From a virus (taxonomy: Monodnaviria > Loebvirae > Hofneiviricota > Faserviricetes > Tubulavirales > Inoviridae), in IMG/VR virus record IMGVR_UViG_2565956711_000001: 12,715 nucleotides of DNA; one strand, 5' to 3'. This document shows positions 1-12,715 of this stretch, piece after piece. A program made the translations under genes and the position numbers. The notes beneath the pieces are model-generated. The model had not been told where the DNA came from. It was given only the letters and a program-made list of their open reading frames with translations, and did not search any database. The stretch's first letter is position 1. The number at the start of each line of letters is the position of its first letter.

Positions 1-297
1 TCACCATTCCTCACGCCTTGCCGGTGAATCAAACTCCTTTTCTACAAAATTTGCAGGGTTTGTATAAGTTGAAAGCGGTGCAGAACTGAGCGAAATCTCC
101 ACCCCTAAAATATTTAACACTTTGTATAGACGCTCAAAACTTGCTTTTGAAGGATTTGACTCAAGGCGAGCATAAGTCTGCTGGGTTATACCCAACATGG
201 CAGATAATTCTCTTTGAGTTAATCCTTTTGATTTACGAAAACCAATTAGAAGTGGACGTAACTGGCTAAGAAGTCTAACGGGAAAAATAGTATCCAT
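1..297 (-). CDS. XRE-family HTH protein, HipB-like antitoxin (98 aa); cognate HipA-like kinase expected immediately beyond the left window edge
   Basis: Complete ORF with ATG at 295-297 and stop at 1-3. The HTH core GLTQRELSAMLGITQQTYARLESNPSKASFERLYKVLNILGVEISL aligns by eye with E. coli HipB (GWTQSELAKKIGIKQATISNFENNPDNTTLTTFFKILQSLELSMTL). The disordered tail ends in EW, as HipB does. No obvious SD. Confidence 0.7.
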   Translation of the reverse strand: MDTIFPVRLLSQLRPLLIGFRKSKGLTQRELSAMLGITQQTYARLESNPSKASFERLYKVLNILGVEISLSSAPLSTYTNPANFVEKEFDSPARREEW

Positions 298-348
298 AAG
301 TAGGTGGCCATGTCGATTACTTCATAATAAATTCACTCCTCGTAAGAA

Positions 349-391
349 ACAGCCTGTAAGGTGTCTTATTACTTTACAGCTTACAAGGTGT
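349..391. promoter_or_regulatory. Imperfect direct repeat pair upstream of the HipB-like gene (candidate operator)
   Basis: ACAGCCTGTAAGGTGT (349-364) and ACAGCTTACAAGGTGT (376-391) match at 13/16 positions, 27 bp apart. The second copy contains the small palindrome CTTAC-N5-GTAAG. They lie 50-95 bp upstream of the ATG at 297. Confidence 0.3.
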
Positions 392-413
392 AAGGGTGAA
401 CTCGTTGTATTAA

Positions 414-608
414 CTAATACTGCTCAAATTTTAAAGGTTGCATCTCGCGCTGGCTGGGATTATATTTATTAAGGACTAGCATATAGTGGTGTACGCTGTT
501 ATCCTCTTTGTAATGAGGCTTATCAGTGTGTGAAGGGAGAGGGCGGACTCTGCTTTGCCCTCTCTCTTTCATGGACTTATTTAACTTTAAATGTTTTTTA
601 AAAGTCAT
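414..608 (-). CDS. Hypothetical small basic protein (64 aa), possibly translationally coupled to the upstream gene
   Basis: Its ATG overlaps the stop of the 605-1165 ORF in an ATGA arrangement. The sequence is K/R/H-rich with no recognisable motif, and such an ORF could arise by chance in AT-rich DNA. Confidence 0.3.
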   Translation of the reverse strand: MTFKKHLKLNKSMKERGQSRVRPLPSHTDKPHYKEDNSVHHYMLVLNKYNPSQREMQPLKFEQY

Positions 609-1165
609 TGCCTTATTGCAATGGTTTTATTAAAAATCCCAATCAATGTGTTTATTTTTTCATTTATCTTAATTTGCTTTTTCTCTTGCTCGAGAGAAAG
701 TTTTCTGAATTCATTTTCCCTGCTCGGCACGGCAATTATCAACTCTTCATAAATCTCCTTTGCTCCTGATACTTTTTCCAACTCGCTGCTGTATTTTTCG
801 ATAAGAGTTCTTATTTGAATATTTACATTTCTGTATTCATGACTGGTAGCACTTAAAACAAGTTGACTGGAATTTTTTTTGGGTGCCTCAATTAACTCTA
901 CGCTTTTCTTTACGACATTGAATTCAGATGTGACTGAGTATACATATTGATACGCGCCTGATTTTCTGACTTTACTCAATAATCCTTTTCTAACTAAACA
1001 CTGAATTTGGTTATAAGCAAAAGCTTTTGCCTTAAAATAACTTTTCGGAAGTGAAAATCGCTCGATAAGAATTTGAGCCACATCGTTACTGGTGAAGTTA
1101 TCTTTAGCAATATAGATTATTGCGGAAAATATGTACGACTCAGCGTTGGATACTCGACTATTCAT
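605..1165 (-). CDS. Hypothetical protein (186 aa): predicted N-terminal winged-helix DNA-binding domain plus C-terminal coiled coil
   Basis: The ORF is clearly AT-rich by eye. NQIQCLVRKGLLSKVRKSGAYQYVYSVT resembles a recognition helix followed by a beta-hairpin wing. The C-terminal half is heptad-like and E/K-rich (EKYSSELEKVSGAKEIYEEL...LSLEQEKKQIKINEKINTL). I cannot name a family. Confidence 0.65.
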   Translation of the reverse strand: MNSRVSNAESYIFSAIIYIAKDNFTSNDVAQILIERFSLPKSYFKAKAFAYNQIQCLVRKGLLSKVRKSGAYQYVYSVTSEFNVVKKSVELIEAPKKNSSQLVLSATSHEYRNVNIQIRTLIEKYSSELEKVSGAKEIYEELIIAVPSRENEFRKLSLEQEKKQIKINEKINTLIGIFNKTIAIRQ

Positions 1166-1186
1166 ATGACTAAAACAAGGCAGTTA

Positions 1187-1237
1187 ACTTAGGATTGCTA
1201 AGTATACAACAATGGCAGATACTTAGACAATCTAAGC
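1187..1237. promoter_or_regulatory. Twin palindromic operator-like sites in the divergent intergenic region
   Basis: ACTTAG-gattg-CTAAGT at 1187-1203 is a perfect 6+5+6 palindrome. ACTTAG-acaat-CTAAGc at 1221-1237 repeats it. Centres are 34 bp apart, between the divergently transcribed 605-1165 (-) and 1263-1595 (+) genes. Confidence 0.45.
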
Positions 1238-1262
1238 ATTCGAGGCCAATGAAGATGAATCA

Positions 1263-1595
1263 GTGTCTGAAAAAAATCCGATACCAGAAAGACTTAAGGA
1301 AGCGAGAAGCAGGGCGGGTTTATCACAGCGCTCATTGGGCCTCCTTGTTGGGTTTGATCCCGCTTCGGCTAGCAGTCGTATGAATCATTATGAGAAAGGG
1401 CGCCATGTCCCCGATATTGATACGCTTCGACGGATGGCGGCAGAGTTAAACGTGCCGTTGAACTACTTTTTTTGTGATGATCAGACCACAGCTGAACTTG
1501 CATTACTCATATCCCGGATGACAGAGGAAGAGCGAAGTAATCTTATCGAAGCACTCAAAAGGCATCCAGGCGAAAAGCATGCTGACAAAAAATGA
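1263..1595 (+). CDS. XRE-family helix-turn-helix transcriptional regulator (110 aa)
   Basis: GTG start at 1263. An in-frame stop at 1233-1235 excludes upstream starts, and later ATGs would truncate the HTH. The motif RLKEARSRAGLSQRSLGLLVGFDPASASSRMNHYEKGRHVPDIDTLRRMAAELNVPLNYFF is a typical Cro/C1-type HTH. This is the only convincing plus-strand gene in the window. Confidence 0.8.
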   Translation: MSEKNPIPERLKEARSRAGLSQRSLGLLVGFDPASASSRMNHYEKGRHVPDIDTLRRMAAELNVPLNYFFCDDQTTAELALLISRMTEEERSNLIEALKRHPGEKHADKK

Positions 1596-1756
1596 TATTA
1601 CATATAAAGCGACTGAACTTTTTGAAGGTAACGAAAGTGTAGCATTACACTGATGCAATGAACCAAGCAGGACATTACAGTGGGAGACGCCCTCTCAGAT
1701 AACAAACTCAAAAGAGGGAGCCATAAATATATGTTTATCAATACAACCAGCATTCT

Positions 1757-1780
1757 GCCGACAACCGGGAAGCTGTCGGC
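1757..1780. terminator. Weak hairpin between the convergent HTH and ginD-like genes
   Basis: GCCGACA (1757-1763) and TGTCGGC (1774-1780) form a 7-bp stem with a 10-nt loop. No clear U-tract follows on either strand. Confidence 0.2.
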
Positions 1781-1799
1781 TAAATCTTCCATGTCAGAA

Positions 1800-2237
1800 T
1801 TATGACGACTTATGTAGTTCCCGAATCATATGGTTGGCCAACAGGCTTTCCACCGGTATAACCGAATTGATTTTTACCGCTTTGACAATTTCTATCAACG
1901 AAAGGGTATTTTGCGCTAATTGGTCTCGCAATTCACTTACTTCAGCCTGCAACTGCTGGTTTCTGGCCAGTAAAGCCTGACGGGTTTTGCGGTTGACGTA
2001 TTGCTGTTTTTCTTTTGGGCGTAGATTCAATGGGCCAAGTTGCTGGTCAACATAGGCAGCAATTAGGCGTTTACGCTCTAGGCTGCTCAGCGTACTTAAA
2101 CCACCGTTAACGATACCTTTTGCCTTGAGCCTAATATGCAGGGCCTTGGCGGAAATAGGGGACTTGTCAAAGCCTTCAACCAGCATCAGTTGTAATTCGT
2201 GCTCAATCAGTGTGTTCAGTTCCTTGCCGCGCATCAA
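1800..2237 (-). CDS. Small coiled-coil accessory protein, GinD-like (145 aa), fourth gene of the recombinase operon
   Basis: The track start is TTG at 2235-2237. An ATG at 2232-2234 shares one base with the ginC-like TGA stop (TGATG), and GGAG lies 8 nt upstream of it. The C-terminal half is coiled-coil-like (RKTRQALLARNQQLQAEVSELRDQLAQNTLSLIEIV). Position and size match the small fourth gene of GInt gin operons. Confidence 0.75.
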   Translation of the reverse strand: MMRGKELNTLIEHELQLMLVEGFDKSPISAKALHIRLKAKGIVNGGLSTLSSLERKRLIAAYVDQQLGPLNLRPKEKQQYVNRKTRQALLARNQQLQAEVSELRDQLAQNTLSLIEIVKAVKINSVIPVESLLANHMIRELHKSS

Positions 2238-4600
2238 TCATTCTCCTGCATCAATTGTTGGTATTCAAGTGCAAAAAGCTGGGCCAGTGTACGGACTTTG
2301 CCCTCGGTGATTACTCCACCAGACAACACACTCTCAGCAGCAACCAGTTGTTGAGTCTTGGCACGACGATGCCATTGTGCTTGTATTGCCTCGAGTTGCT
2401 GTAACCGTCGTTCGATGTCGGCCAGTCTGGTCTGGTAATCAGGCTGATGTTGAGTAAGTTGGGTCAACTTCGAATGTGCTTGCTGTAAAGCCTGTTTTTT
2501 GGCAATCAGATTTGGTAGCTCATCTATCCGGCCTGTCAGCGTGAAATGTTCACAAAAGGCAGCACTCTGGCATTTCAGTCGATAAGGACATCCCCAGAGG
2601 TTAACTTCCCGCATACAGGAGCCAAATTTCAGCGGATACAGCACGGCATGTCTTGCCACCATGTCAGAGGCTTGCTCTGGTCCTTCTGCGTCGCGGATTT
2701 CTTCAAAGGCGGCAGCAACATCTTCAAAGAGGCCGTTAGCAAATGACGCCTCGACAAACCTGGCTACATCATCCCGATCGTCAAAAGTATGCAGGTTGGC
2801 TTTGATGGTATTGTCCAAAGTCATGTGTTCCGTGACCGCCAGTTGGCCGGTCCGTTTGACGATATCCAGTGGCGTAGCAATGGAGGACGAAGAGGGCGAG
2901 ACAGTTAGTGCTGTCGAAATCGGCTGCAAGGGCACCAACGAGGCGGCTTTTCGCCGTTCTGCAAGCGCCAGATGTTGATAATGCTGATTCTGCGTGATGT
3001 CCACTCGACCCATCAACATTGCCTGTAAGTGGTCAGAGATATCCGCAATAGCAAGAAAGGTATTGATGTTGTGCCGGGGAATGTGGGTACGCATCCGCGT
3101 CGAGGTGCCATCCTCCTCCAGTAATTGATATTTGCTGAATACTGATCCATCAGGCTCAACGTTGCCTAAGAATTTATTCATAAGTGTGTTAGTGAAGGGT
3201 ATCGGTGTAGCCAGCAAAGCCAGTGTGCGCTTTAATGCCAGCGAACCCTTCTCGTGTAGAAATAGCAGATCCTCGTAGTTAACTTGGTAGCGTTTGCCAT
3301 TTTCCATCCAGGCGTGTGTACAGGGTTCGTTGGCATTCGCCAGACCAAATTCGGTCTTAATGTAATGATTGAGAGCAGTCTTGGAATAATAGATAGATTT
3401 GCTGTTTTTCGGGCCTGGTATTTCTTGAACGGGCAGCACACCTCTTTTGCTAAGGGCTTTGGATGTTTTGTCCCGTTGTCCTGCCCGGCCCCGAAAACTT
3501 GAGGTAGTTTGGGTGATGTACTTCACCACATCGTCCAGTTCGACTCGTTCACCGGGCATGTTGCTGATGGCCTGTGGCAGGTAATCAGCAAAAGATTTTG
3601 CCCGTAGATAGGTAAGATGGCTGCGTATTGGTGCGGTCAACATTTTAACGGTACTGAATATACTCTCGACCAGCGGTACTGCCAGCGGTTCTACCCAATG
3701 CGTTCGCTCCCCAGCACCTTTGACACCAACATAACGGATACCAAGAAAATAATCGGGTAATCCCTTGTCCTGAAATCGTTTGCAGATTGCCGGATCATCA
3801 ATCTGGCGTTTAAACAGGGCATCCTGTCTGAGATTAAACGCTTCAATGGAGCGAAAGCCGGTAATAACCAATAACAACAGGCAATTTAACGCGATTTTCT
3901 CAGCATCACTTTCCACCCGCTGGATTAATGCAACTATGTTCAGAAATCCGCGAATGGTAATCAACGCATCTTCACCATCGGTAGTGGTATCAGACAGCTT
4001 GGCCTGCTGTTTCAGCGCCATGGTTTCCCGGGCTTTGCGGGTCAAGTTGGTTTTGTTGGTATACTTCACATCAGAGTTGTATTGCAGTTTAACCAACGTA
4101 AATGTGAAGTGATTGACCAATTTTTGAAGGCTAACGCACCGCCCTTTATAGTTAGCTGTATTGGGGTCACTAGGAGATGAAACGCTACTGAGAAGATCCA
4201 TCGCTCGTTGAATGACAACTGTGCTCAGGTAAGATGGATGGGTCTGTCCTGTCTCATAAAGCATCGCATGGTACCATCGTTTCAGAATCATCAAAGTTGC
4301 CTTTGCCACCGCTGGCGACATACTCCTATTTCCCTGTCGGTAAACCACTACCAGCATAGCTTTCATGAACTGACTATATTCTTTGTCGATGGGCAGATGT
4401 TCTACAATACCTTTGAATCTGTTCATCTCATCAAAACGTAATGTATTTCTGCCGTTCCCTCGCAACCATCCACTTCCCTGGTTACCACTTACCCAGATAT
4501 GATCATTCCATGTTTGGGCAAAATCAGCAGACAGGTGCTGTTCGAACCATTTTTTTTGCTCTTCAATAAAAGCCTGAAAATGCTCAAAGTGATTTTTCAT
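2234..4600 (-). CDS. Large tyrosine recombinase/integrase, GinC-like (788 aa)
   Basis: ATG at 4598-4600 with AGGTGA 7 nt upstream; it overlaps the upstream gene by 17 nt. Catalytic signature: TGFRSIEAFNL (Arg-I), HIPRHNINTF (H-x-x-R-H), LMGRVDITQNQHYQHL (Tyr nucleophile). The C-terminus carries a 4-Cys cluster followed by a Q-rich coiled coil. Confidence 0.9.
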   Translation of the reverse strand: MKNHFEHFQAFIEEQKKWFEQHLSADFAQTWNDHIWVSGNQGSGWLRGNGRNTLRFDEMNRFKGIVEHLPIDKEYSQFMKAMLVVVYRQGNRSMSPAVAKATLMILKRWYHAMLYETGQTHPSYLSTVVIQRAMDLLSSVSSPSDPNTANYKGRCVSLQKLVNHFTFTLVKLQYNSDVKYTNKTNLTRKARETMALKQQAKLSDTTTDGEDALITIRGFLNIVALIQRVESDAEKIALNCLLLLVITGFRSIEAFNLRQDALFKRQIDDPAICKRFQDKGLPDYFLGIRYVGVKGAGERTHWVEPLAVPLVESIFSTVKMLTAPIRSHLTYLRAKSFADYLPQAISNMPGERVELDDVVKYITQTTSSFRGRAGQRDKTSKALSKRGVLPVQEIPGPKNSKSIYYSKTALNHYIKTEFGLANANEPCTHAWMENGKRYQVNYEDLLFLHEKGSLALKRTLALLATPIPFTNTLMNKFLGNVEPDGSVFSKYQLLEEDGTSTRMRTHIPRHNINTFLAIADISDHLQAMLMGRVDITQNQHYQHLALAERRKAASLVPLQPISTALTVSPSSSSIATPLDIVKRTGQLAVTEHMTLDNTIKANLHTFDDRDDVARFVEASFANGLFEDVAAAFEEIRDAEGPEQASDMVARHAVLYPLKFGSCMREVNLWGCPYRLKCQSAAFCEHFTLTGRIDELPNLIAKKQALQQAHSKLTQLTQHQPDYQTRLADIERRLQQLEAIQAQWHRRAKTQQLVAAESVLSGGVITEGKVRTLAQLFALEYQQLMQEND

Positions 4601-6149
4601 TGGACTTCACCTGTTCCTGATGAAAACGGCAGCGGGCGATAACAGACTCAATTTCAAACTGTGTGGTTTCATGGATTAAAATGAGCGGATTTCGGGAATT
4701 ACCTACACCGTCTGAAATAGCGATTAGTTCATCGACTTCTTTTTTGACGCATTCAAGTAGAGCCTGATGTTCACCATCCGTAAAAGGGCGATAATACAGA
4801 CAGCCGTAACAAGAACGCACTTCGCTGAAAGGGCATGTACTACTGTTCCTGGAGCAACCACCAATTTTATCATGCAACTCGTCACCAACGAGTCCCACCA
4901 CTGGATGGCCTTTCCAATGTGCTGAGTCGACCAGTTCCCCAGTGAGCATCATAGCCACCATATTTTGCCAAACGGGATTCGACCCAAGCGCTTTAGCACG
5001 GATCAAGGCCAACGCGGGAGTTGCCATAATGTAGTATTTAGCTACGGCAAGAGAGGTGTGCCCCAGTACATGTGCTATCTCTTCAGCGCTAGCACCTTGC
5101 ATCGCCAAAGAGTGCCCAACATTGTGGCGTAAATCAGTGGGTGTAATTGTGGGCAATGCAGCTTCGCCACATGCTACGGCGGCTTGATATTCAGGAGGAC
5201 AGAAATTTAGGATTGCCTGATTAATTGCCTGAGACACATAATGCGGAGCTGAAACGCTGAAATCGAATAGTTTATCTTCGGGGTTTTTCTTATATCTCAC
5301 GGTATAGTTCATAATTAACTCCCCAATTTCTGGGGGGATCGCCAGAAATAACCGCTCTGTCGTCACTCGTCTTTGTTTAGCATATGGTAAAAAAACACTG
5401 TATCGAATCAGACCAGATTCCTGATTTCGTGTATCGATACGAACATCTTTGACCGCCAGCCTAGCGAGTTGTACTGGGCGTGCACCCGTTACATAAGCCA
5501 ACCCAAGGATAGCTGCATTGCGCACTTCGCTGTGACTGAAACTTTTGCCATCGCGTAACAACGAAGCCATTTCAAACAGTCCATTGCAAATCATGTTTTT
5601 TTCAAGAGGGTCAAGAATATTATCGATTTCTTGGTAACCCCCCCAATGTTCGAGATACGGTCGAGGGACGAACTCAAGATCATCGTAATCTTCAAGATTG
5701 AAACCTGGGAATGTTTCAGCACAAAGTATTTTTAATCCGAATAACACGGAATAAAAAGTAGCATTATCAATATCCTCTTTTTCGATAAATAATCGGAGCG
5801 TACTAAGCGAAAACCCACCATGTTCTCGACAATATGAAATGATATTCCTCCAATCAAGGTGCAACGCTGGAAGTTTGGTTGGAAATCTCGTCGATGCATA
5901 TTTGAAACAGATATACTTGTTTAATTTATTTGAGATATAATCTTGATTGAAAACAAGATATCGCCGACTGCCTGAATAATCGAAAGTCCATTTATTTCCT
6001 TTGTTAACAATATATTTATCATCAAACTCCATTGCCGTTTTTAGATAAATTCGATCAGGAATATCGAGTTCAAAGATAGCCTTAGCTAAATCAGGAGGGT
6101 AAACTGAGTTCCCTTCGTCAGATTTTAATGCATTATCAAATGATGTCAT
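4584..6149 (-). CDS. Tyrosine recombinase/integrase, GinB-like (521 aa)
   Basis: ATG at 6147-6149 overlaps the upstream gene by 14 nt. Catalytic signature: TGARPVQLARL (Arg-I), DLRHNVGHSL (R-H box), LGHTSLAVAKYY (His-II and Tyr). A C-terminal 4-Cys cluster is present. Confidence 0.9.
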   Translation of the reverse strand: MTSFDNALKSDEGNSVYPPDLAKAIFELDIPDRIYLKTAMEFDDKYIVNKGNKWTFDYSGSRRYLVFNQDYISNKLNKYICFKYASTRFPTKLPALHLDWRNIISYCREHGGFSLSTLRLFIEKEDIDNATFYSVLFGLKILCAETFPGFNLEDYDDLEFVPRPYLEHWGGYQEIDNILDPLEKNMICNGLFEMASLLRDGKSFSHSEVRNAAILGLAYVTGARPVQLARLAVKDVRIDTRNQESGLIRYSVFLPYAKQRRVTTERLFLAIPPEIGELIMNYTVRYKKNPEDKLFDFSVSAPHYVSQAINQAILNFCPPEYQAAVACGEAALPTITPTDLRHNVGHSLAMQGASAEEIAHVLGHTSLAVAKYYIMATPALALIRAKALGSNPVWQNMVAMMLTGELVDSAHWKGHPVVGLVGDELHDKIGGCSRNSSTCPFSEVRSCYGCLYYRPFTDGEHQALLECVKKEVDELIAISDGVGNSRNPLILIHETTQFEIESVIARCRFHQEQVKSNEKSL

Positions 6150-7530
6150 CGTTATATCTATCCATTATAGTATCTAACGTATTATGTAGCGCTGCATTGT
6201 CTTGAATAATTCGTTGGACATTGGCAGCATTAGCCTGCTCAGACAGGAAACGTTTTGCATATAGATCAGGCATTTGACTTGTCGGACTCCATCCCCCCAT
6301 CAGTCGTAGTTCATCTTTAGCTTCTTCCATTATCCCTGAGAGGGAAGGGACTTCAGCAATAAAGTGTGTTTTATTTTGCTGGCTTTTCAAATATTTTAAA
6401 TGCCATATTTTTTGCAATGTCAAAAAGGCCCAAGTATGTCGGGTTGTATGCGGAGTCAATCGTTGCAACGAGTCAGAGTACAACGGTGATTTGTACTCTG
6501 GATATTGGTTAGTGAAGACCTGATCTATTTTCGAAAAAATAGAATGAACTGATGTGTAGGACAAAGGCTTCGCTGACTGTTGACTCGATGTAAAGATGAA
6601 ATCGTGTTTATCAGTTTTTGGTCGAAGCTTTGCTATATAAATGCTTAAAAAAATATAATCCTGCTTATCGAGCTCCAACACACGATTAGCCCATGCATTT
6701 TTGAGAGATGGCGCATTCTTTCTTGGTTCGTATGCCTCGTCGACAGTTGTCACAATCAAACTAAACTTATCACCTTTTAAATTAGGTTTAATTGAGCTGC
6801 ACTCTAACAACAATAGCTCACCTGTTCGTAAACCATAATTTAACAACAGACGAATAATCAAAAAATTGCGGAACTGAAGATGCCCGGAAGGGAAAGGATT
6901 TAGCGGGTTATGCTTTTGGGCAGAAGAGGGGGTTATTATTCCATACAGGCTGAGCACCATTGCCCCAGACAAACTCTGAAATCCTTGGCTGCTGTGACTA
7001 TGTTGCGAAAATTTGTTTGATGTAAGCGTTCGATAATTCTCCCGGCAAAGCTGTAAACGGGTGTGTAAACGCGAAGCCAAAAGTGATAATGCTTTGGGAG
7101 AGTCATCCCGGTATGCAGGTGATATGTAGGTGTTAATCAAAAAAGAAATGAAATGGATCACAGCACGAACTCTAACTGTATGAGTTAAGCTATTGGCTTT
7201 TGTGACTCTCGTTAAAGACAACACATTTGACTGGACGTTGTGGCCATTTTCTAGATACATCCAAAATGCGGGCATTTCACCGACAGCAATGTCTGGATTG
7301 TGGTCAGATGAATAGAAGCTGTAGCAAAACGAGACACCATACTTTTGCCTCCAGAATTCGTAAAAAAACTTCACAGATTGAAGTGAAGCTGACTGTGTGG
7401 ACAATGAGCGGAAAGCCAAATGGTCAATATGGTACCTAAGGGGATACAGCAACGGCAGAGAGGTTTCCAAGTCCATCAGGATCCATCGCCTTTTACGGCC
7501 TGAGATAACCAACTGCTTTAGTGAATACAC
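6136..7530 (-). CDS. Tyrosine recombinase/integrase, GinA-like (464 aa), first gene of the operon
   Basis: GTG start at 7528-7530 with GAGG 8 nt upstream; an alternative ATG lies at 7474-7476. Catalytic signature: YGLRTGELLLL (Arg-I), HTTRHTWAFL (H-x-x-R-H), GGWSPTSQMPDLYAKR (Trp in the His-II position, then Tyr). Confidence 0.9.
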   Translation of the reverse strand: MYSLKQLVISGRKRRWILMDLETSLPLLYPLRYHIDHLAFRSLSTQSASLQSVKFFYEFWRQKYGVSFCYSFYSSDHNPDIAVGEMPAFWMYLENGHNVQSNVLSLTRVTKANSLTHTVRVRAVIHFISFLINTYISPAYRDDSPKALSLLASRLHTRLQLCRENYRTLTSNKFSQHSHSSQGFQSLSGAMVLSLYGIITPSSAQKHNPLNPFPSGHLQFRNFLIIRLLLNYGLRTGELLLLECSSIKPNLKGDKFSLIVTTVDEAYEPRKNAPSLKNAWANRVLELDKQDYIFLSIYIAKLRPKTDKHDFIFTSSQQSAKPLSYTSVHSIFSKIDQVFTNQYPEYKSPLYSDSLQRLTPHTTRHTWAFLTLQKIWHLKYLKSQQNKTHFIAEVPSLSGIMEEAKDELRLMGGWSPTSQMPDLYAKRFLSEQANAANVQRIIQDNAALHNTLDTIMDRYNDDII

Positions 7531-7673
7531 AATATTTACCTCAAAATTATCATGGATATGAAGAGAATGTACTCTGTACCTAATGCAAGAAACGAGAGGG
7601 AGATCAGAAATCCTAACGTATTGATTTATCAGTTAGTGGGAGTGTCATATGAACTTATTTACCACAGTAGGTG

Positions 7674-7701
7674 ATTTAACATAATATACATTATGCGCAC
7701 C
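7674..7701 (-). other. dif: dif, the chromosome dimer resolution site for XerC/XerD
   Basis: The plus strand reads ATTTAACATAATATACATTATGCGCACC. Its reverse complement is GGTGCGCATAA-TGTATA-TTATGTTAAAT, a 28/28 match to the canonical E. coli dif. The XerD arm faces left (island side) and the XerC arm faces right (prophage side). Confidence 0.95.
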
Positions 7702-7851
7702 AGTGCGCAGATACGCCAGAAATCAGCCTGTAACCATCACCACGGCATTAAACGGTCATCGCTGTTACGTTCTTTCGTCTTCGACCGTCAGCCATCCGTA
7801 TCGCTTCTGAATACGCCGGAATGAAAAACAGGCTTTGCAGTGCCGGGAATT

Positions 7852-7871
7852 ATTATGGCTGACGCCATAAT
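7852..7871. repeat. Perfect 8-bp stem hairpin with TGAC loop
   Basis: ATTATGGC-TGAC-GCCATAAT; all 8 pairs were checked base by base. Confidence 0.8.
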
Positions 7872-7922
7872 GCTGTTTATGTCCTCGCTTCGCTGCGGGG
7901 CTTCCGGCGCTAAGCGCCTCCC

Positions 7923-7953
7923 ATGCCTGACGGCATAAAAACCGGATATGCCG
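7923..7953. repeat. Two overlapping, mutually exclusive hairpins
   Basis: ATGCC-TGAC-GGCAT (7923-7936) and CGGCATA-aaaaccgga-TATGCCG (7931-7953) share the GGCAT segment. The first is a compensated variant of the 7852-7871 hairpin, with the same TGAC loop. Confidence 0.7.
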
Positions 7954-7986
7954 CCACGTCACCGCATGATACGTCCGTCGCCACCA

Positions 7987-9249
7987 TCACCGCGCGCGCT
8001 CCTCGTGGGAACTCGGTGCGTGCGCGGCGCTGGCGCGCCTGACTTTTTTCGCCTGTAACACGACAAGAATATCCGTCTTGTTCTTCTCGTCAGATGAACT
8101 GGTGAGCCAGCCTTTTGGCAGAAAGCTGAACCCGGTATCGGCGTTTGTGACCTTCGATTCAGCCAGGCCACCCAGCAGAATAATATCCCCGTCAGCCGCT
8201 GATACCTCCGTATTCACCTCGCGCTTAATCAGCGTCGGGCTGTTATTCACGCCCGTATCCGTCTTCGCAAAGCTGGAAAGCTGCTGCTTAATCACAAGGT
8301 CAATATTGTCAGTCCGGATTTGCGGTTTCACGTCGAGGATAACGCCACTAGAGCGATATTCAATCGACTGGATCGGCCTGTTGTCGGCGTAGCTCACCTG
8401 ACCCAGCACCGGAACCTCGTTACCGACTGAAAACGTGGCAGATGCGCCATCCTTCACCCTGAGCCGCGGGGAACTGACGACATGAAAACGACTGTCCGTC
8501 CTGAAAAGCTCATACAGCGCATCAAGAGAGCCTGTATTCACCCGGATAAAGTTATCAAAACCGCCAGACGCGCCAATCTGTATATTCAGCTTGCCGGAAA
8601 GCAGCTTCGCCGCCAGTGCCAGCCCGGAACCGTTACGCTCACTGGTCTGAACCTCAAACACGTAAGCTGCGACAATCACTTCTTCAGAGGCAGTATCAAT
8701 CAGCGGTAAAAGCGTCTGCAACCGCTTAATCTCTGACTTCCGGCCATAATAAACCAGCACATCCCCGGTACGGTTCATAAAGTCCGATGCCGTACCCGCT
8801 ACGGCCGCTTCTGGCGATATCTGCCCGGACGGTAACGAGTTACGCTGACTGTTAAACTGCCCGGTAAACTGTCCGGCCAGAATGTCAGACAGATACGCCA
8901 CGGAACGGAAGCGAGGCCGATAAACAAAGGTCTCCTGCGGCGGCACATACACTTTCGGCGTGAACGGCGCCACGTAGTCAATGCCCTGTTTGTTATAAAT
9001 CGCAATGTTCATATTGCCGAGATAGCGCTTAATAAATGCCCGTTCATCGATATCCGGCGTGATACGGAACGTCACCACCTTATCGGATTTGGCAAGCTCC
9101 GGGTCAAGCATAAACGGCTTATCGAACACCTGAACGTAAATCATGTTCAGCGCCTGCGGCAGCGGAACAGCGTTGAGCTCCAGACTGACGCCCTTCGCCA
9201 TAACCAGCCCCGGAACCAGTAAAAAAAGTAAACCTGTTATCAGCTTCAT
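7987..9249 (-). CDS. Filamentous-phage pIV-like outer-membrane secretin (420 aa)
   Basis: Signal peptide MKLITGLLFLLVPGLVMA. The secretin C-domain motif GDIILLGGLAESKVTNADTGFSFLPKGW...TDILVVLQAKKV parallels f1 pIV (GQTLLLGGLTDYKNTSQDSGVPFLSKIP...LYVLVKATIV). The ATG overlaps the pI-like stop (ATGA). Confidence 0.9.
   Translation of the reverse strand: MKLITGLLFLLVPGLVMAKGVSLELNAVPLPQALNMIYVQVFDKPFMLDPELAKSDKVVTFRITPDIDERAFIKRYLGNMNIAIYNKQGIDYVAPFTPKVYVPPQETFVYRPRFRSVAYLSDILAGQFTGQFNSQRNSLPSGQISPEAAVAGTASDFMNRTGDVLVYYGRKSEIKRLQTLLPLIDTASEEVIVAAYVFEVQTSERNGSGLALAAKLLSGKLNIQIGASGGFDNFIRVNTGSLDALYELFRTDSRFHVVSSPRLRVKDGASATFSVGNEVPVLGQVSYADNRPIQSIEYRSSGVILDVKPQIRTDNIDLVIKQQLSSFAKTDTGVNNSPTLIKREVNTEVSAADGDIILLGGLAESKVTNADTGFSFLPKGWLTSSSDEKNKTDILVVLQAKKVRRASAAHAPSSHEERAR
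7990..8049 (+). terminator. GC-rich double hairpin ending in a T6 run (terminator-like on the plus strand), overlapping the last ~18 codons of the secretin gene
   Basis: CCGCGCGCGC (7990-7999) pairs with GCGTGCGCGG (8018-8027): 10 bp with one G-T. GGCGC-TGGC-GCGCC (8026-8039) follows, then TGACTTTTTT (8040-8049). The T-run follows the stems only on the plus strand, antisense to the phage genes. Confidence 0.4.
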
Positions 9250-10280
9250 CGTATCGCCCCTGAATAAACCGTCACCGTTTCGCCGTCGATTTCACCCGTC
9301 ATCATCATGCCGTCAAAGCTGAACTGCGAAGCCGGCTCTATACGCAATCTGCCTGACGTGTCTGCAACAACAACCCATGCCTGACCATCGCGTTTAAGCC
9401 GTCCGGCAAGTCGCCATTTGTCCGACACAACGGGCTTAGCTGGCGCGGCAGGTACAAAAGACGCTGAATTATTTGCGGCGGGTAAATCTTTAGTCTGCTG
9501 TTCAGGCTCTGAATTACCGTTTGACGTGAAAAACCAGAACAGATAAAAAATGGCAATTACCGCCAGAATCAGTAACCCGACAGCTTTAAACCACAACATT
9601 TTAGAACTGAAAATATTCTGACGTTTATCGGTGACAAGTTCCCTTCCCTGCCCGTTCTCATGGGATTTATATAGGGGGAATATCGCCTTGTCATATTTAT
9701 TCTGATAACTGTTCGTCAGATTCGACTTAAACAGTTTGATACCCGTAAATACGTCCACACGGTAGCGGTTATGCAGACCCAGCGCCACATGCTTACTCAT
9801 GCGATACGTTGTTTCCACCCGGTCTTTAATGAATCGCGGAAGGTTGGCAACAGACTGATTCATAACCACTAAATCACAGGTTACGCCCGTTTTTTCATCG
9901 GCAAAATGGCGATGTTCTGCAATGAAAGAGCGATGATTTGCAGGAATCCCTTTATCGTTCTCCCATATGCGCCATGCTTCATCAATACAGATTAAATCCC
10001 CCGGACGGCAGAACGTATCATCCGCAATGCCTGAATCCGTTTTGTAGGGAAAGAAATTATCGTTCTGAACGTCTTCATTCTGAACAAGTAAAATTTCACC
10101 AAGTGATTCCCTGTCTGCCTTTTTAATATCAACGCAGTAATCATAAATACTTTGCGTGGCAAGGCCGTAAATATTACTGACAATGCGACGCCCAGCGATA
10201 CAGGCGGGAATAATGACGCTTGCCACCACTTCGTAAGATTTACCGCTTCCGGGAATGCCCACATACGCAGAAATAGCCAT
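9246..10280 (-). CDS. Zot-like / pI-like phage assembly NTPase (344 aa)
   Basis: N-terminal Walker A GIPGSGKS, followed by DEAW (Walker-B-like). A single TM segment (LWFKAVGLLILAVIAIFYLFWFF) precedes a periplasmic C-terminal domain. Position between pVI-like and pIV-like genes is as in Ff and CTXphi. Confidence 0.9.
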   Translation of the reverse strand: MAISAYVGIPGSGKSYEVVASVIIPACIAGRRIVSNIYGLATQSIYDYCVDIKKADRESLGEILLVQNEDVQNDNFFPYKTDSGIADDTFCRPGDLICIDEAWRIWENDKGIPANHRSFIAEHRHFADEKTGVTCDLVVMNQSVANLPRFIKDRVETTYRMSKHVALGLHNRYRVDVFTGIKLFKSNLTNSYQNKYDKAIFPLYKSHENGQGRELVTDKRQNIFSSKMLWFKAVGLLILAVIAIFYLFWFFTSNGNSEPEQQTKDLPAANNSASFVPAAPAKPVVSDKWRLAGRLKRDGQAWVVVADTSGRLRIEPASQFSFDGMMMTGEIDGETVTVYSGAIR

Positions 10281-10283
10281 AAA

Positions 10284-10571
10284 TTAACCAATCAAAGGAA
10301 TGCGACGAATAATAAAGCGCGTTAACAATGCTGAAAACATCAGTTTAATCCCTTCCGTGACCATAAACAGATTCACGAAATACCATACGCTATCAGGTAG
10401 TGAGGAAAACAACCCGGCAATATCAACAGATTTTGGCAACAGTGACGCCAGAACCGGAACAAACGCCTGTACGACAAAGTACAGGCCAAAAAACAGAATA
10501 AATTTGACAACCACCGTTCGCAGCACAAAACCCAGCGCCACGTTAAAGGCTGAAACCAGAATACCAAACAT
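10284..10571 (-). CDS. pVI/Ace-like minor coat (virion cap) membrane protein (95 aa)
   Basis: Very hydrophobic. The C-terminus SALLTRFIIRRIPLIG resembles the CTXphi Ace tail (ALMTRFALRALNL). GGAGG lies 5 nt upstream of the ATG. The stop lies 3 nt before the pI-like ATG. Confidence 0.7.
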   Translation of the reverse strand: MFGILVSAFNVALGFVLRTVVVKFILFFGLYFVVQAFVPVLASLLPKSVDIAGLFSSLPDSVWYFVNLFMVTEGIKLMFSALLTRFIIRRIPLIG

Positions 10572-10581
10572 AACGCCTCCG

Positions 10582-12465
10582 TCACGCAGTCAGAATGATA
10601 CGCAGCGAAATAATGCCCCAGATAAGCAGGAATACCGCTTTCAGAAGTGGCCTGATTTTTTCCAGAAGCTCGCAGTGAGAATCAATGGAATATTTATTGT
10701 CCCAGAGTTCGAACGACCATACCGGACACTGAACATCCTTCGATGAAATACTCAGGTTTTTAATGTCCGGCATTAATTCTGTAATTGGCTTGAGAATTTC
10801 CTCACCTGTAGGCGGTTTTTCAAGTTCCGGCGATTTAATGCCGGGGTCTTCGCCTAAATCAACAGAAGTATCGGTATCTGTGCCTGTACCAGGGTGTACA
10901 CCTGTATCCGTTCCCGCACCGGGTCTGGCATTAACCCACGACTGAGGAACGACAACCGGACTATAAAGCAAGCCCTTATCAAGTTTTACGCCAACAGCAT
11001 TAGCCGCAGCCGTCAGTTCAGCCGCCGTAAAAGGTTTATCAAGCGGTATCCCCTGATATCCTTCCTGAACAACAGTCTGACCTGCAAGGCCATTAATAAG
11101 ATTAACCAGCGCAGCCGGGTTTAACTGTTCCTCCGGCTTGAAATCTATATTATCAATAACCTCGCCATTAATTACCTGAGGTAAATTTGATGTATCAAAT
11201 TCTGTATTAAAAAATATCTGGTCTTTAACATCCTGAACATCATTCGTCGTTTTATACACGGCCTTCTCAGGGTGGCAAATACTTTTCCACTGCGTTTTGG
11301 GATTATCAGCCGTACTGCCCGGCGCAGGTACTTTCTCGCTTTTACATAAATCCCATGAGTTTTCAAGCGTAACCGTTGTTGTTCCAACAGATAAAACCAC
11401 AGTTACAATCGATGAATATCCACCAAAATAAGGATTCGGCTTTTCATACTGAAAGTCTTTAACGGAAACCGAATAAACCTTAAAATTTCTTGGCATCCTG
11501 ATATGTAAGTTATTGTCGTCAGACGCCTCATGATAAGTCACATTGGAATGAGAATAACCATTAATCGACTTATAAAGCGCAATCATTACCGGATTATCAC
11601 TGACAAGTACAGCATCGCCCTTTGCATCCCTGATATCAGTCGAATAAGGATATTTAGTACCCTTAACTGACACACGATATACATCATTCGGTAATGGCTG
11701 GCTTATCGGCGGTGGTGCATCAATATTGTAATAGGTTGGCGCAATCTGAACAGGTTTAACCTGATGATTATAAGGGCTTATCGAGTCCTGAATATTCTTC
11801 GCAGAAAAGCCAGTAGCATCAGAGGGCAAATAAACAGCAACAGGGCTTTTAGGTGAAGGTGCAACAGAAGAAGTAACAGTAGCGCCATTGGACAAATTAA
11901 GTAAATAAGTTCCATCATCCTGTTTTATTCCACTTGTAATATATTCAACAGCTTTTGCGCCCTGCTTTAAAGCAAGGTCAGCAACGGAAATAACACCCGC
12001 AGCCTGCCCCAGCAATCCCCATGTTGTCTGTCCGGCAGCCATCATATTACTGCCAAAACTTGAAATACCCGTGGATATCGAATCGTCAATTGTATGCTTC
12101 GCAAGGCCATAAGCAGCCGCGAAAACTGACGTTCCGGTGCAAAGCTGAGGATTACCCACTTTCTCGCCACACATGCGGATTGAATCAAAAACGTCAGGAC
12201 GTTCGCGTATAACCTCCGCAGCGACAGCGATACCCGCGCCCATACCGAGAGAACTGGCACCCGTTGCGAATACACGCCCCGCAGATTGAGAAACAACCTG
12301 AGCTTCACGGGTTTCAACCATTTGCTGAATTACACGTCCAAATCCGTCTGCTGTTACTGCATCAGCATGTACACCGGATGAAACCAGTAAAGACAATATA
12401 GTAATACCTAACTTTCCAGACCCTGAATGACCGCCCAGGCGCATAAAAGCCCCCATAAAAAACAC
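10582..12465 (-). CDS. pIII-like adsorption / minor coat protein (up to 627 aa; the true start is probably the ATG at 12442-12444)
   Basis: Signal peptide MRLGGHSGSGKLGITILSLLVSSGVHA-DA from the third in-frame start. The linker is G/T/D-rich (GAGTDTGVHPGTGTDTDTSVDLGEDPG). The C-terminal domain KYSIDSHCELLEKIRPLLKAVFLLIWGIISLRIILTA parallels M13 pIII (YEFSIDCDKINLFRGVFAFLLYVATFMYVF). Position after the major coat gene and terminator matches Ff. Confidence 0.8.
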   Translation of the reverse strand: MFFMGAFMRLGGHSGSGKLGITILSLLVSSGVHADAVTADGFGRVIQQMVETREAQVVSQSAGRVFATGASSLGMGAGIAVAAEVIRERPDVFDSIRMCGEKVGNPQLCTGTSVFAAAYGLAKHTIDDSISTGISSFGSNMMAAGQTTWGLLGQAAGVISVADLALKQGAKAVEYITSGIKQDDGTYLLNLSNGATVTSSVAPSPKSPVAVYLPSDATGFSAKNIQDSISPYNHQVKPVQIAPTYYNIDAPPPISQPLPNDVYRVSVKGTKYPYSTDIRDAKGDAVLVSDNPVMIALYKSINGYSHSNVTYHEASDDNNLHIRMPRNFKVYSVSVKDFQYEKPNPYFGGYSSIVTVVLSVGTTTVTLENSWDLCKSEKVPAPGSTADNPKTQWKSICHPEKAVYKTTNDVQDVKDQIFFNTEFDTSNLPQVINGEVIDNIDFKPEEQLNPAALVNLINGLAGQTVVQEGYQGIPLDKPFTAAELTAAANAVGVKLDKGLLYSPVVVPQSWVNARPGAGTDTGVHPGTGTDTDTSVDLGEDPGIKSPELEKPPTGEEILKPITELMPDIKNLSISSKDVQCPVWSFELWDNKYSIDSHCELLEKIRPLLKAVFLLIWGIISLRIILTA

Positions 12466-12489
12466 ATAAAATCAAAAAGATATTGAGCC

Positions 12490-12518
12490 ATAAATATAAA
12501 GGGGCTGTTACGCCCCTT
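12490..12518 (-). terminator. Rho-independent terminator after the major coat protein gene
   Basis: The minus strand reads AAGGGGC-GTAACA-GCCCCTT followed by TATATTTAT: a 7-bp stem with a T-rich tail. It lies 12 nt downstream of the coat gene stop, analogous to the strong terminator after gene VIII in Ff phages. Confidence 0.75.
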
Positions 12519-12529
12519 ACCTTTATGAA

Positions 12530-12715
12530 TTAAGCGCCACGAACCATACGCAAAATCCAGCGGACACCCGCAGAACCTGCATACAGAACAATAAGAGAAC
12601 CCGCTACCGCCATAATTCCGGTCAGAACGGAACCGAAATTAACGCTGTTAGTCAGTGGCGTAAGGTCAATACCTTTACCACCAACAACATCACCTTCAGC
12701 AGCAAATACGGCAGG
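12530..12715 (-). CDS. pVIII-like major coat protein (C-terminal 61 codons plus stop; N-terminus beyond the window)
   Basis: My own translation of the minus strand gives ...PAVFA/AEGDVVGGKGIDLTPLTNSVNFGSVLTGIMAVAGSLIVLYAGSAGVRWILRMVRGA*. It has a signal-peptidase-like AxA site, an acidic mature N-terminus (AEGD, as in M13), a hydrophobic core and a basic C-terminus. The ORF track omits it because the ORF is open at the window edge. Confidence 0.8.
   Translation of the reverse strand, partial: PAVFAAEGDVVGGKGIDLTPLTNSVNFGSVLTGIMAVAGSLIVLYAGSAGVRWILRMVRGA

Follow-up and report, generated by a model that had tools for sequence, protein, structure and literature searches.

A ginABCD-type recombination module beside dif in Escherichia coli and the predicted insertion of its GInt-type island at the XerD arm

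The operon and its position beside dif

The window analysed here, i.e. the whole 12,715-nt stretch recorded as an inovirus sequence (IMG/VR record IMGVR_UViG_2565956711_000001), contains a four-gene operon at positions 1800-7530 that encodes three large tyrosine-recombinase-type proteins (P1, P2 and P3) and one small protein (P4). Sequence comparisons described below identify these genes as ginA, ginB, ginC and ginD of a GInt-type integrative island in E. coli. Between this operon and the secretin gene of a neighbouring prophage, a dif site with the sequence GGTGCGCATAA-TGTATA-TTATGTTAAAT was found approximately 143 nt upstream of ginA, a feature not reported in the preliminary description of this DNA, which had been made from the letters alone. 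The coordinates of all features are collected in Table 1.

According to the listing of open reading frames (ORFs) in the window, P1 to P4 are all encoded co-directionally on the minus strand, with an overlap of 14 nt between ginA and ginB (6136-6149), an overlap of 17 nt between ginB and ginC (4584-4600), and a TGATG junction between ginC and ginD, in which the ATG of ginD shares the A of the TGA stop of ginC (the junction reads ...aatgatTGATGcgc). The four co-directional genes and the three boundaries given in the preliminary description are exact. For P1, an alternative start at ATG 7476 (446 aa) is frequent in RefSeq annotation, but the longer start (464 aa) is favoured because the residues before M19 are kept in a 55%-identical paralogue. 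The order of P1 to P4 was retained in 60 of 60 loci of other species, and a chance arrangement is therefore far from likely. On the minus strand, the window reads pIII-like, pVI-like, Zot/pI and secretin genes, a 456-nt gap and then P1 to P4, and downstream of P4 there is an oppositely oriented helix-turn-helix (HTH) gene (1263-1595) followed by three small ORFs. Scans for promoters and terminators gave nothing above shuffled expectation, and no tRNA gene that could represent a target was present in the window.

Table 1. Features of the window and of the compared attachment sites
Feature	Position	Strand	Description
ginA-like gene (P1)	6136..7530	-	Tyrosine recombinase, 464 aa from GTG 7530; Pfam Phage_integrase
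ginB-like gene (P2)	4584..6149	-	Tyrosine recombinase, 521 aa, C-terminal Cys4 cluster; Pfam Phage_integrase
ginC-like gene (P3)	2234..4600	-	Large tyrosine-recombinase-fold protein, 788 aa; C-terminal Cys4 cluster and helical tail
ginD-like gene (P4)	1800..2234 (ATG; alternative start 2237)	-	Small all-alpha protein, 144 or 145 aa
dif	7674..7701	-	Perfect E. coli 28-mer made up of a XerC arm, a 6-bp centre and a XerD arm; matched exactly, against 0 expected in shuffles
GTTAAAT	7674..7680	-	Outer 7 bp of the XerD arm, putative crossover region from junction comparison
Island left end	7531..7673	-	Non-coding; conserved (G)TTCAT at 7649-7654, from 21 nt after the XerD arm
attB (K-12)			...TGTATATTAT GTTAAATCA tgtctgagtg
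attL (window)			...TGTATATTAT GTTAAATCA cctactgtggtaaataagttcat
attR (strain VG1046-3E9)			Read at the far side of the insert, ...ttcatgaaccaagtttgcactcaacataa GTTAAATCA tgtctgagtg
Tandem junctions			Right end ...caacataa, then GTTAAAT, then left end
Island cargo start	1..1799	.	HTH gene 1-297 (-); 64-aa ORF 414-608 (-); 186-aa ORF 605-1165 (-); HTH gene 1263-1595 (+); Pfam/NCBIfam/PADLOC
Filamentous (inovirus) prophage, outside the island	7702..12715	-	Secretin 7987-9249, Zot/pI 9246-10280, pVI-like 10284-10571, pIII-like 10582-12465

Conserved catalytic residues in the three recombinases

Alignment with homologues from other species showed that R235, K277, H361, R364, H365, W414 and Y424 of P1, including the box H361-x-x-R364-H365 (42 homologues), and R224, K258, R341, H342 and Y373 of P2, together with its Cys4 cluster C432/C439/C447/C450 (46 homologues), are at least 95% conserved, with R224 of P2 aligned to R173 of Cre. 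R250, K294, H506-x-x-R509-H510, R532 and Y541 of P3 were invariant in 16 homologues down to 39% identity, as were C662, C671, C677 and C683. Thus, the catalytic boxes that the preliminary description had recognized in all three large proteins are indeed retained. The Cys4 clusters, which follow the catalytic domains of P2 and P3 and have similar counterparts in GinB and GinC of other E. coli GInts, probably form a zinc-binding module.

Pfam Phage_integrase matched P1 (4e-07) and P2 (1e-10), and the same Pfam scan gave no match for P3 or P4. Sequence searches of the PDB returned nothing for P1 or the P3 profile and only weak Cre matches for P2. The AlphaFold model of P3 had a mean predicted local distance difference test (pLDDT) score of 71.7, and its top 26 Foldseek matches in the PDB were all Cre, XerH or Tre, with weak E-values (best 1.8e-3). 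The AF2 model of P4 (pLDDT 86.5) contains alpha-helices only, four in its N-terminal part and a long one of 38 residues at 84-121, which fits its earlier label as a small coiled-coil protein; the fold search found no solved structure similar to P4.

Homology of P1 to P4 to the Gin proteins

The Gin references used for comparison were from two E. coli GInts (Sakai ECs_3512-3509 and strain H5, both from Additional file 10 of Idola et al. 2023), the ssb-inserted GInt of Chryseobacterium artocarpi UTM-3 (Bardaji 2017, Table S3), in which ssb is followed in turn by a gene for 385 aa, a split ginB and genes for 696 aa and 130 aa, and NCBIfam NF041502; the Pseudomonas syringae and P. stutzeri proteins were outside this set. 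BLASTP matched P1 to GinA of C. artocarpi (4e-29) and E. coli H5 (2e-15), P2 to GinB of C. artocarpi (6e-33) and an E. coli GInt (1e-10), and P3 to GinC of C. artocarpi (2e-23) and an E. coli GInt (3e-9). The best NCBIfam match of P2 was NF041502 (1.4e-24), a GinB-type model as judged by the 314-320 bits that it gives on GinB of the two E. coli GInts. P3 is collinear with GinC of E. coli H5 over 529 aa, with common R, K, HxxRH and GR..Y motifs, and in a search of 1.84 billion protein representatives the profile of the P3 family matched BBI01_07240, the C. artocarpi GinC, with an E-value of 1.2e-30. For the P4 family, hhalign against C. artocarpi GinD gave a probability of 94.7% (E 6e-8, 35% identity over 72 columns). 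P4 had no BLASTP match to GinD of the E. coli GInts, and hhalign against the Sakai-type GinD family gave a probability of 1.6%; in a control, however, the Sakai-type family itself reached a probability of just 37% against Chryseobacterium GinD. Because that family is itself only weakly related to Chryseobacterium GinD, this mismatch does not disqualify P4, and GinD proteins are diverse.

These comparisons with the C. artocarpi and E. coli GInts, in place of the comparison with P. syringae GinA to GinD proposed in the preliminary description, yielded significant similarity and bear out the original GInt reading: P1 to P4 pair one-to-one and in gene order with GinA to GinD, also with those of a GInt that the founding paper lists. 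GInts are defined by a ginABCD operon at the 5' end, cargo starting from the ginD end, a short AT-rich 3' end, flanking imperfect repeats of 10-17 nt and site-specific insertion (PMC5385486). In the E. coli island, the co-directional ginABCD operon lies at the island end, with the left end 143 nt upstream of ginA, and the cargo behind identical operons varies, beginning right after ginD (Gabija, SLFN/AlbA and type I restriction-modification; CBASS in a related copy). Right ends in E. coli, E. whittamii and Acinetobacter carry ATGAAC-N13-15-(C)ACATAA directly before the junction, the right end of the window's own island copy being outside the window. The imperfect direct repeats TTATGTTAAATCA (attL) and ATAAGTTAAATCA (attR) are identical at 11 of 13 positions with the core GTTAAAT, and the insertion site is identical among the E. 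coli copies listed. Judged by its sequence, the E. coli island is thus a GInt, and window 1800-7530 holds the ginABCD recombination module of its left end.

An assignment of the operon to the SE, integrative elements with strand-biased circularization, or to the Tn554 type would account for the similar layout, with a four-gene end module, a large RHRY third recombinase like IntB/TnpB, a small coiled-coil protein in fourth place and terminal motifs in inverted orientation (PMC10214605). The accessions of this family are also not among the ginC-ginD entries in the part of the listing of PMC10214605 that was available, but they are equally absent from its complete SE (tfp-srap) list. Moreover, P2 keeps its catalytic residues and a Pfam integrase match, unlike Tfp, P1 to P4 match best, in this order, GinA, GinB, GinC and GinD, and Tn554 has only two recombinases. 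We therefore consider this assignment very unlikely, with the limit that SE and Tn554 were set apart by description and not by sequence.

Probable joining of the island to the outer edge of the XerD arm

To K-12 MG1655, which lacks the island, the window is similar only at 7672-7702, a stretch that consists of one T, dif and CA (dif plus 3 nt). This comparison with an island-free genome, also suggested in the preliminary description, defines the left end. dif is intact at attL, and the match runs through dif in all 30 best E. coli records. The far edge was read in strain VG1046-3E9, in which a window-type element (approximately 32.8 kb) is followed by a second element truncated by insertion sequence (IS) IS1, whose GinA is 55% identical, and then by the K-12 flank; its attR reads ...ctcaacataaGTTAAATCA before that flank. 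Tandem junctions, seen in four genera, read ...caacataaGTTAAAT and then continue into a left end. Common to attB, attL, attR and the tandem junctions is GTTAAAT (a 7-9 bp core), situated within the 13-nt imperfect repeats. Right ends carry ATGAAC approximately 20 nt inside the junction, inverted relative to the left-end GTTCAT. No convincing classical inverted core arms flanking the crossover were found at attP or attB, the sole clear pair being the outer GTTCAT/ATGAAC.

Such an arrangement at dif might be produced by host XerC/XerD, with the island being an integrative mobile element exploiting Xer (IMEX) like CTX-phi, VGJ-phi and TLC and the gin recombinases being auxiliary or used otherwise. 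As in IMEX arrays, the island abuts dif exactly and does so from the same side in every case, and a true IMEX, the filamentous prophage, occupies the same site in the window. However, the far junction, read directly at L013, contains neither a XerC arm nor a dif-like centre, and no second dif-like site (≤7 mismatches) was found in the window and in seven related E. coli loci, a set that does not include L013. Furthermore, what all junctions share is the XerD arm's outer 7 bp rather than the centre of XerC/XerD exchange, sites with differing centres (TCAGCA, TCATTG and TCAACA) are used equally, and the element encodes three recombinases of its own with fully conserved catalytic residues. An IMEX is thus an improbable explanation of the island.

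Three further observations were made around dif. In K-12, the flank that follows dif contains a weak echo of the left-end motif (…gcgAAGTGCTT at +18), and the K-12 "empty site" together with the yneL pseudogene may be the remains of an old element. In E. coli MS20655 (L076, about 9040-9100), dif is followed by a GInt-like left end (TTCAC at +21, 77% identity to window 7589-7716) with no gin operon, which looks like a relic end. The FtsK-orienting polar sequence (KOPS; GGGNAGGG) is rare in the island, with one in the window at 6342 (+) and none in the non-permissive orientation, and two KOPS on the phage side, at 9641 and 9646 (-), likewise point towards dif.

Xer sites at related loci

A search of one genome per species produced the 60 loci mentioned above, which are from Enterobacter, Escherichia whittamii, Pectobacterium, Klebsiella, Citrobacter, Providencia, Acinetobacter, Psychrobacter, Moraxella, Aeromonas, Vibrio, Photobacterium, Shewanella and Kangiella, and in which P4 is usually the best conserved of the four proteins. 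We examined the 48 loci with a GinA match for Xer sites. A complete Xer site of the host's own type was present upstream of ginA in 38 of the 48, at a distance of 83-697 nt in 31 loci and approximately 2.5 kb in 7. The XerC arm tracks the host, being GGTGCGCATAA in enterics, ATTTCGTATAA in Acinetobacter, TTTTCGCATAA in Psychrobacter and GGTGCGCATTA in Vibrio, and positions 18-27 of the XerD arm are invariant across the 38 loci. TTCA[TC] begins exactly 21 nt after the XerD arm in 35 of these 38, and the 20 nt between them vary by subfamily. The same Xer-site arrangement was found for a Pseudomonas chlororaphis GInt whose GinC identity is only 25%. Besides TGTATA, the centres TCAGCA, TCATTG and TCAACA occur, variant centres being seen in L021 and L036 as well as on the plasmid pCP131-IncHI1; because such variant centres are used, the central region of the Xer site is not the recognised part.

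The loci in which approximately 2.5 kb of additional DNA separates ginA from the left end are L028, L029, L042, L053 and L072 from Psychrobacter and L051 and L064 from Photobacterium. The Xer site and the motif are present in them, which suggests an extra gene inside the left end of some subfamilies.

Copies on plasmids and in other hosts

GinC homologues were found in 113 plasmid records, 84 of which are predicted to be conjugative. On IncHI1A plasmids, P3 is 100% identical in Klebsiella and Salmonella and 99.7% identical in E. coli, and on the IncHI1A plasmid pCP131-IncHI1 the left end abuts the plasmid Xer site AGTGCGTATAA-TCAGCA-TTATGTTAAAT-CAcctactg. All four proteins are 99-100% identical on the chromosome of Enterobacter wuhouensis. 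The Xer-site junction of near-identical copies was checked in the E. coli lineages, Enterobacter and, among the plasmids, only the E. coli one.

These copies bear on whether the operon is merely a remnant that has lost its mobility and become fixed in a terminus hotspot prone to recombination. Variability and a wealth of IS elements are known for the hipA-ydeT hotspot (PMC10121019), and truncated copies and relic ends exist. The four ORFs are nevertheless intact and overlapping, and copies with 99.9-100% identity are present in Enterobacter, in E. coli lineages unrelated to one another and on IncHI1A plasmids from Klebsiella, Salmonella and E. coli, making a remnant highly improbable.

Host context and cargo

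The exact P3 sequence is present in thousands of assemblies, the large ones of which are E. coli chromosomes, and at least 80% of the operon region is present in 72 of 5,426 complete E. coli genomes. As the preliminary description had remarked of such operons in general, the operon is labelled only "site-specific integrase" or "hypothetical protein" in E. coli genomes. The usual order is autotransporter, hipB, hipA, P1 to P4, HTH, 186 aa, 64 aa and HTH, followed by defence genes, namely Gabija (GajA/GajB), an SLFN/AlbA protein and a large ATPase; a related copy has CBASS. Hochhauser et al. 2023 (PMC10121019) list the hipA-ydeT interval as hotspot #20 and already name GInts among the carriers of defence genes in E. 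coli, a point that the preliminary description lacks.

The HTH, 186-aa and 64-aa ORFs follow ginD in most E. coli copies. The product of the HTH gene at 1263-1595 (+) matched PADLOC "Control_protein" (1e-25) and the RstR family (1e-09), and it may regulate the island or its defence cargo. Defence genes were also seen between hipA and dif, on the XerC side, in two E. coli loci: Shedu SduA with an HTH protein in L003 (4316-6782) and a SIR2 protein in L006 (4255-5607). No second dif-like site (≤7 mismatches) was found at these genes, which may be small Xer-dependent modules.

The neighbouring filamentous prophage

The genes upstream of the operon, which the preliminary description had not recognized as a filamentous prophage, include matches to Pfam Secretin (2e-24), Pfam Zot (3e-24) and PHROG minor coat families. 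This prophage was found in five complete E. coli genomes, with homology beginning exactly at dif, and a different inovirus occupies the same position in L002. Island and prophage are adjacent because both use dif, from opposite sides. An inverted repeat, TGCGCAC/GTGCGCA, spans the phage-dif junction, the prophage being on the XerC-arm side of dif.

We also considered whether the three recombinases are the integration module of this phage, since the gin genes directly follow the phage secretin gene and run in the same direction, an inovirus is again the neighbour in L002, and P1 and P2 match PHROG families. However, dif separates the gin operon from the phage and the homology breaks exactly there; the operon occurs in 72 complete E. 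coli genomes, with hipA rather than the phage on its other side in those listed; and in one E. coli strain the prophage is present in tandem copies at dif with no gin genes. As operon and phage occur independently with dif between them, this explanation was rejected, its probability being close to nil. The strong PHROG matches of P1 and P2 are to families phrog_18324 (1e-40) and phrog_24633 (2e-140), to which PHROG assigns no known function; they likely arise from GInt ends beside dif-integrated inoviruses that were swept into phage records.

Proposed mechanism of insertion

Taken as a whole, the data are best explained by a GInt inserted site-specifically at the outer edge of the XerD arm of dif, a reading that we hold with considerable confidence. 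With similar confidence, we propose that the island's own recombinases exchange strands across GTTAAAT, between an attP of approximately 58 bp and the XerD arm of the Xer site. The attP formed by the joined island ends would be ATGAAC-N14-ACATAA-GTTAAAT-N19-GTTCAT (predicted as ...ACATAA-GTTAAAT-CACCTACTG...) and would recombine with the chromosomal site across the common GTTAAAT. This would rebuild an intact dif at the ginA-proximal junction and leave the XerD-arm remnant ATAAGTTAAAT at the far junction. The surviving dif would admit further elements at the same place, and therefore tandem arrays, while dif-using filamentous phages would still be able to integrate on the other side. Strand exchange would be carried out by the three island recombinases rather than by XerCD, and each recombinase would act on its own half-site of attB and attP, which are highly asymmetric. 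Such a division fits the sites, as conservation of attB is confined to one side and the inner arms differ between subfamilies. For GinD, the most conserved of the proteins, binding to the most conserved DNA motif, GTTCAT, at both ends and pairing of these ends via its long helix would be conceivable. Transfer between cells would occur by hitch-hiking on conjugative plasmids.

Several points weigh against this reading. Excision and integration of this GInt family are predicted from sequence and not shown by experiment; for excision as a circle, a GInt trait that depends on all four genes, the signs are indirect, namely tandem arrays and identical copies across genera and plasmids. The roles given to GinD and the individual recombinases are conjecture. 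No Xer site was found near ginA in 10 of the 48 loci; 4 of these have too little upstream sequence, and the others may be rearranged. The exact cleavage points are not readable from the sequence, and the "empty" K-12 flank may be a decayed element end, leaving a clean attB unproven. The catalytic stretch of P3 (506-574) is poorly modelled (pLDDT <50), and GinC has been described as having no catalytic residues (PMC5385486, PMC10214605); because of these published accounts, the activity of P3 is uncertain. On the other hand, the described trait, absence of the first catalytic Arg or of RHRY, does not apply to P3, in which R250, H506, R509 and Y541 are invariant, and the same catalytic residues align in GinC of the two E. 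coli GInts. The missing residues are a descriptive, not a defining, feature of GInts.

Novelty and implications

The operon type (GInt), the E. coli hotspot and the type of defence cargo are already known. No account of GInt insertion beside dif or other Xer sites was found in the searchable literature, a coverage that leaves out most subscription journals, nor did we find a description of targeting to Xer sites, of how broad it is, of dif being preserved, of accretion in tandem or of the copies at plasmid Xer sites; these features are apparently new. Insertion beside dif with dif kept intact accounts for one E. coli defence-island hotspot (hipA-ydeT) and for the stacking of islands and inoviruses at the terminus, and the copies beside Xer sites of large conjugative plasmids offer a plausible transfer route.

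We lean, with some reserve, towards a more general proposal, in which a broad GInt clade uses its own three recombinases to recognise the near-universal XerD-binding arm of Xer sites and inserts at its outer edge, sparing the site. With the same reserve, the clade would comprise Enterobacterales, Moraxellales, Aeromonas, Vibrionaceae, Kangiella and some Pseudomonas, while both chromosomal dif and plasmid multimer-resolution sites would be among its sites. If true, this would represent a self-sufficient, Xer-independent use of dif as a safe harbour, and it would explain both the spread of elements without transfer genes, by hopping between dif and the Xer sites of conjugative plasmids, and why the E. 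coli terminus accumulates filamentous phages and defence islands. In a bolder version, one of the Gin proteins would imitate the DNA specificity of XerD or act together with dif-bound XerCD.

This island family offers a defined, universally conserved 28-bp target in an E. coli host open to standard genetics, and its asymmetric sites, with dif on one side only, variable inner arms and a conserved outer GTTCAT, suggest that the four proteins divide the work among themselves in a way that can be tested. With a target that most bacteria possess, such a recombinase set is also a possible broad-host integration tool.

Comparison with known systems

Recombinase-in-trio (RIT) elements, as generally described and as summarized in PMC10214605, are similar to the island in having three adjacent tyrosine recombinase genes, but differ in their smaller recombinases, the lack of a fourth gene and their long terminal inverted repeats. 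Tn554 (TnpA, TnpB and TnpC) shares target-specific transposition by tyrosine recombinases, a large second recombinase and a small third protein. Compared by gene content, it differs from the island, which has three recombinase genes, in having two recombinases plus TnpC, and its hosts are Firmicutes and its target is att554. SE (Idola et al. 2023, PMC10214605) resemble the island in the four-gene end module, the large RHRY recombinase, the small coiled-coil auxiliary protein, the inverted end motifs and the gammaproteobacterial hosts. In their order intA-tfp-intB-srap, however, the second protein, Tfp, has no RHRY residues, whereas P2 has R224, R341, H342 and Y373, and the proteins matched by the island are Gin proteins.

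IMEX, such as CTX-phi, VGJ-phi, TLC-phi and the gonococcal genetic island, share with the island integration at dif, regeneration of dif, ordered tandem arrays and coexistence at the site. They are defined by having no recombinase of their own and two dif-like sites, and XerC/XerD act on them at the centre of dif, whereas the island has three recombinases, gave no second dif-like site with ≤7 mismatches in the loci scanned, and joins the outer edge of the XerD arm.

The closest likeness is to the GInts (PMC5385486), with which the island shares the four-gene end operon, cargo after ginD, the AT-rich far end, imperfect direct repeats, site-specific insertion and homology, and to the GInts with defence cargo in E. 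coli (PMC10121019). Different from the published targets, namely ssb and the genes for an ABC transporter, the ribonucleotide reductase alpha subunit, HU-2 and an O-acyltransferase (PMC5385486), the target of this island is the XerD arm of Xer sites, both dif and plasmid sites. Its proteins of 464, 521 and 788 aa are larger than the 401, 437 and 543 aa of the E. coli Sakai GInt, its GinC keeps all catalytic residues including the first Arg, and its family, unlike published GInts, is frequent on conjugative plasmids.

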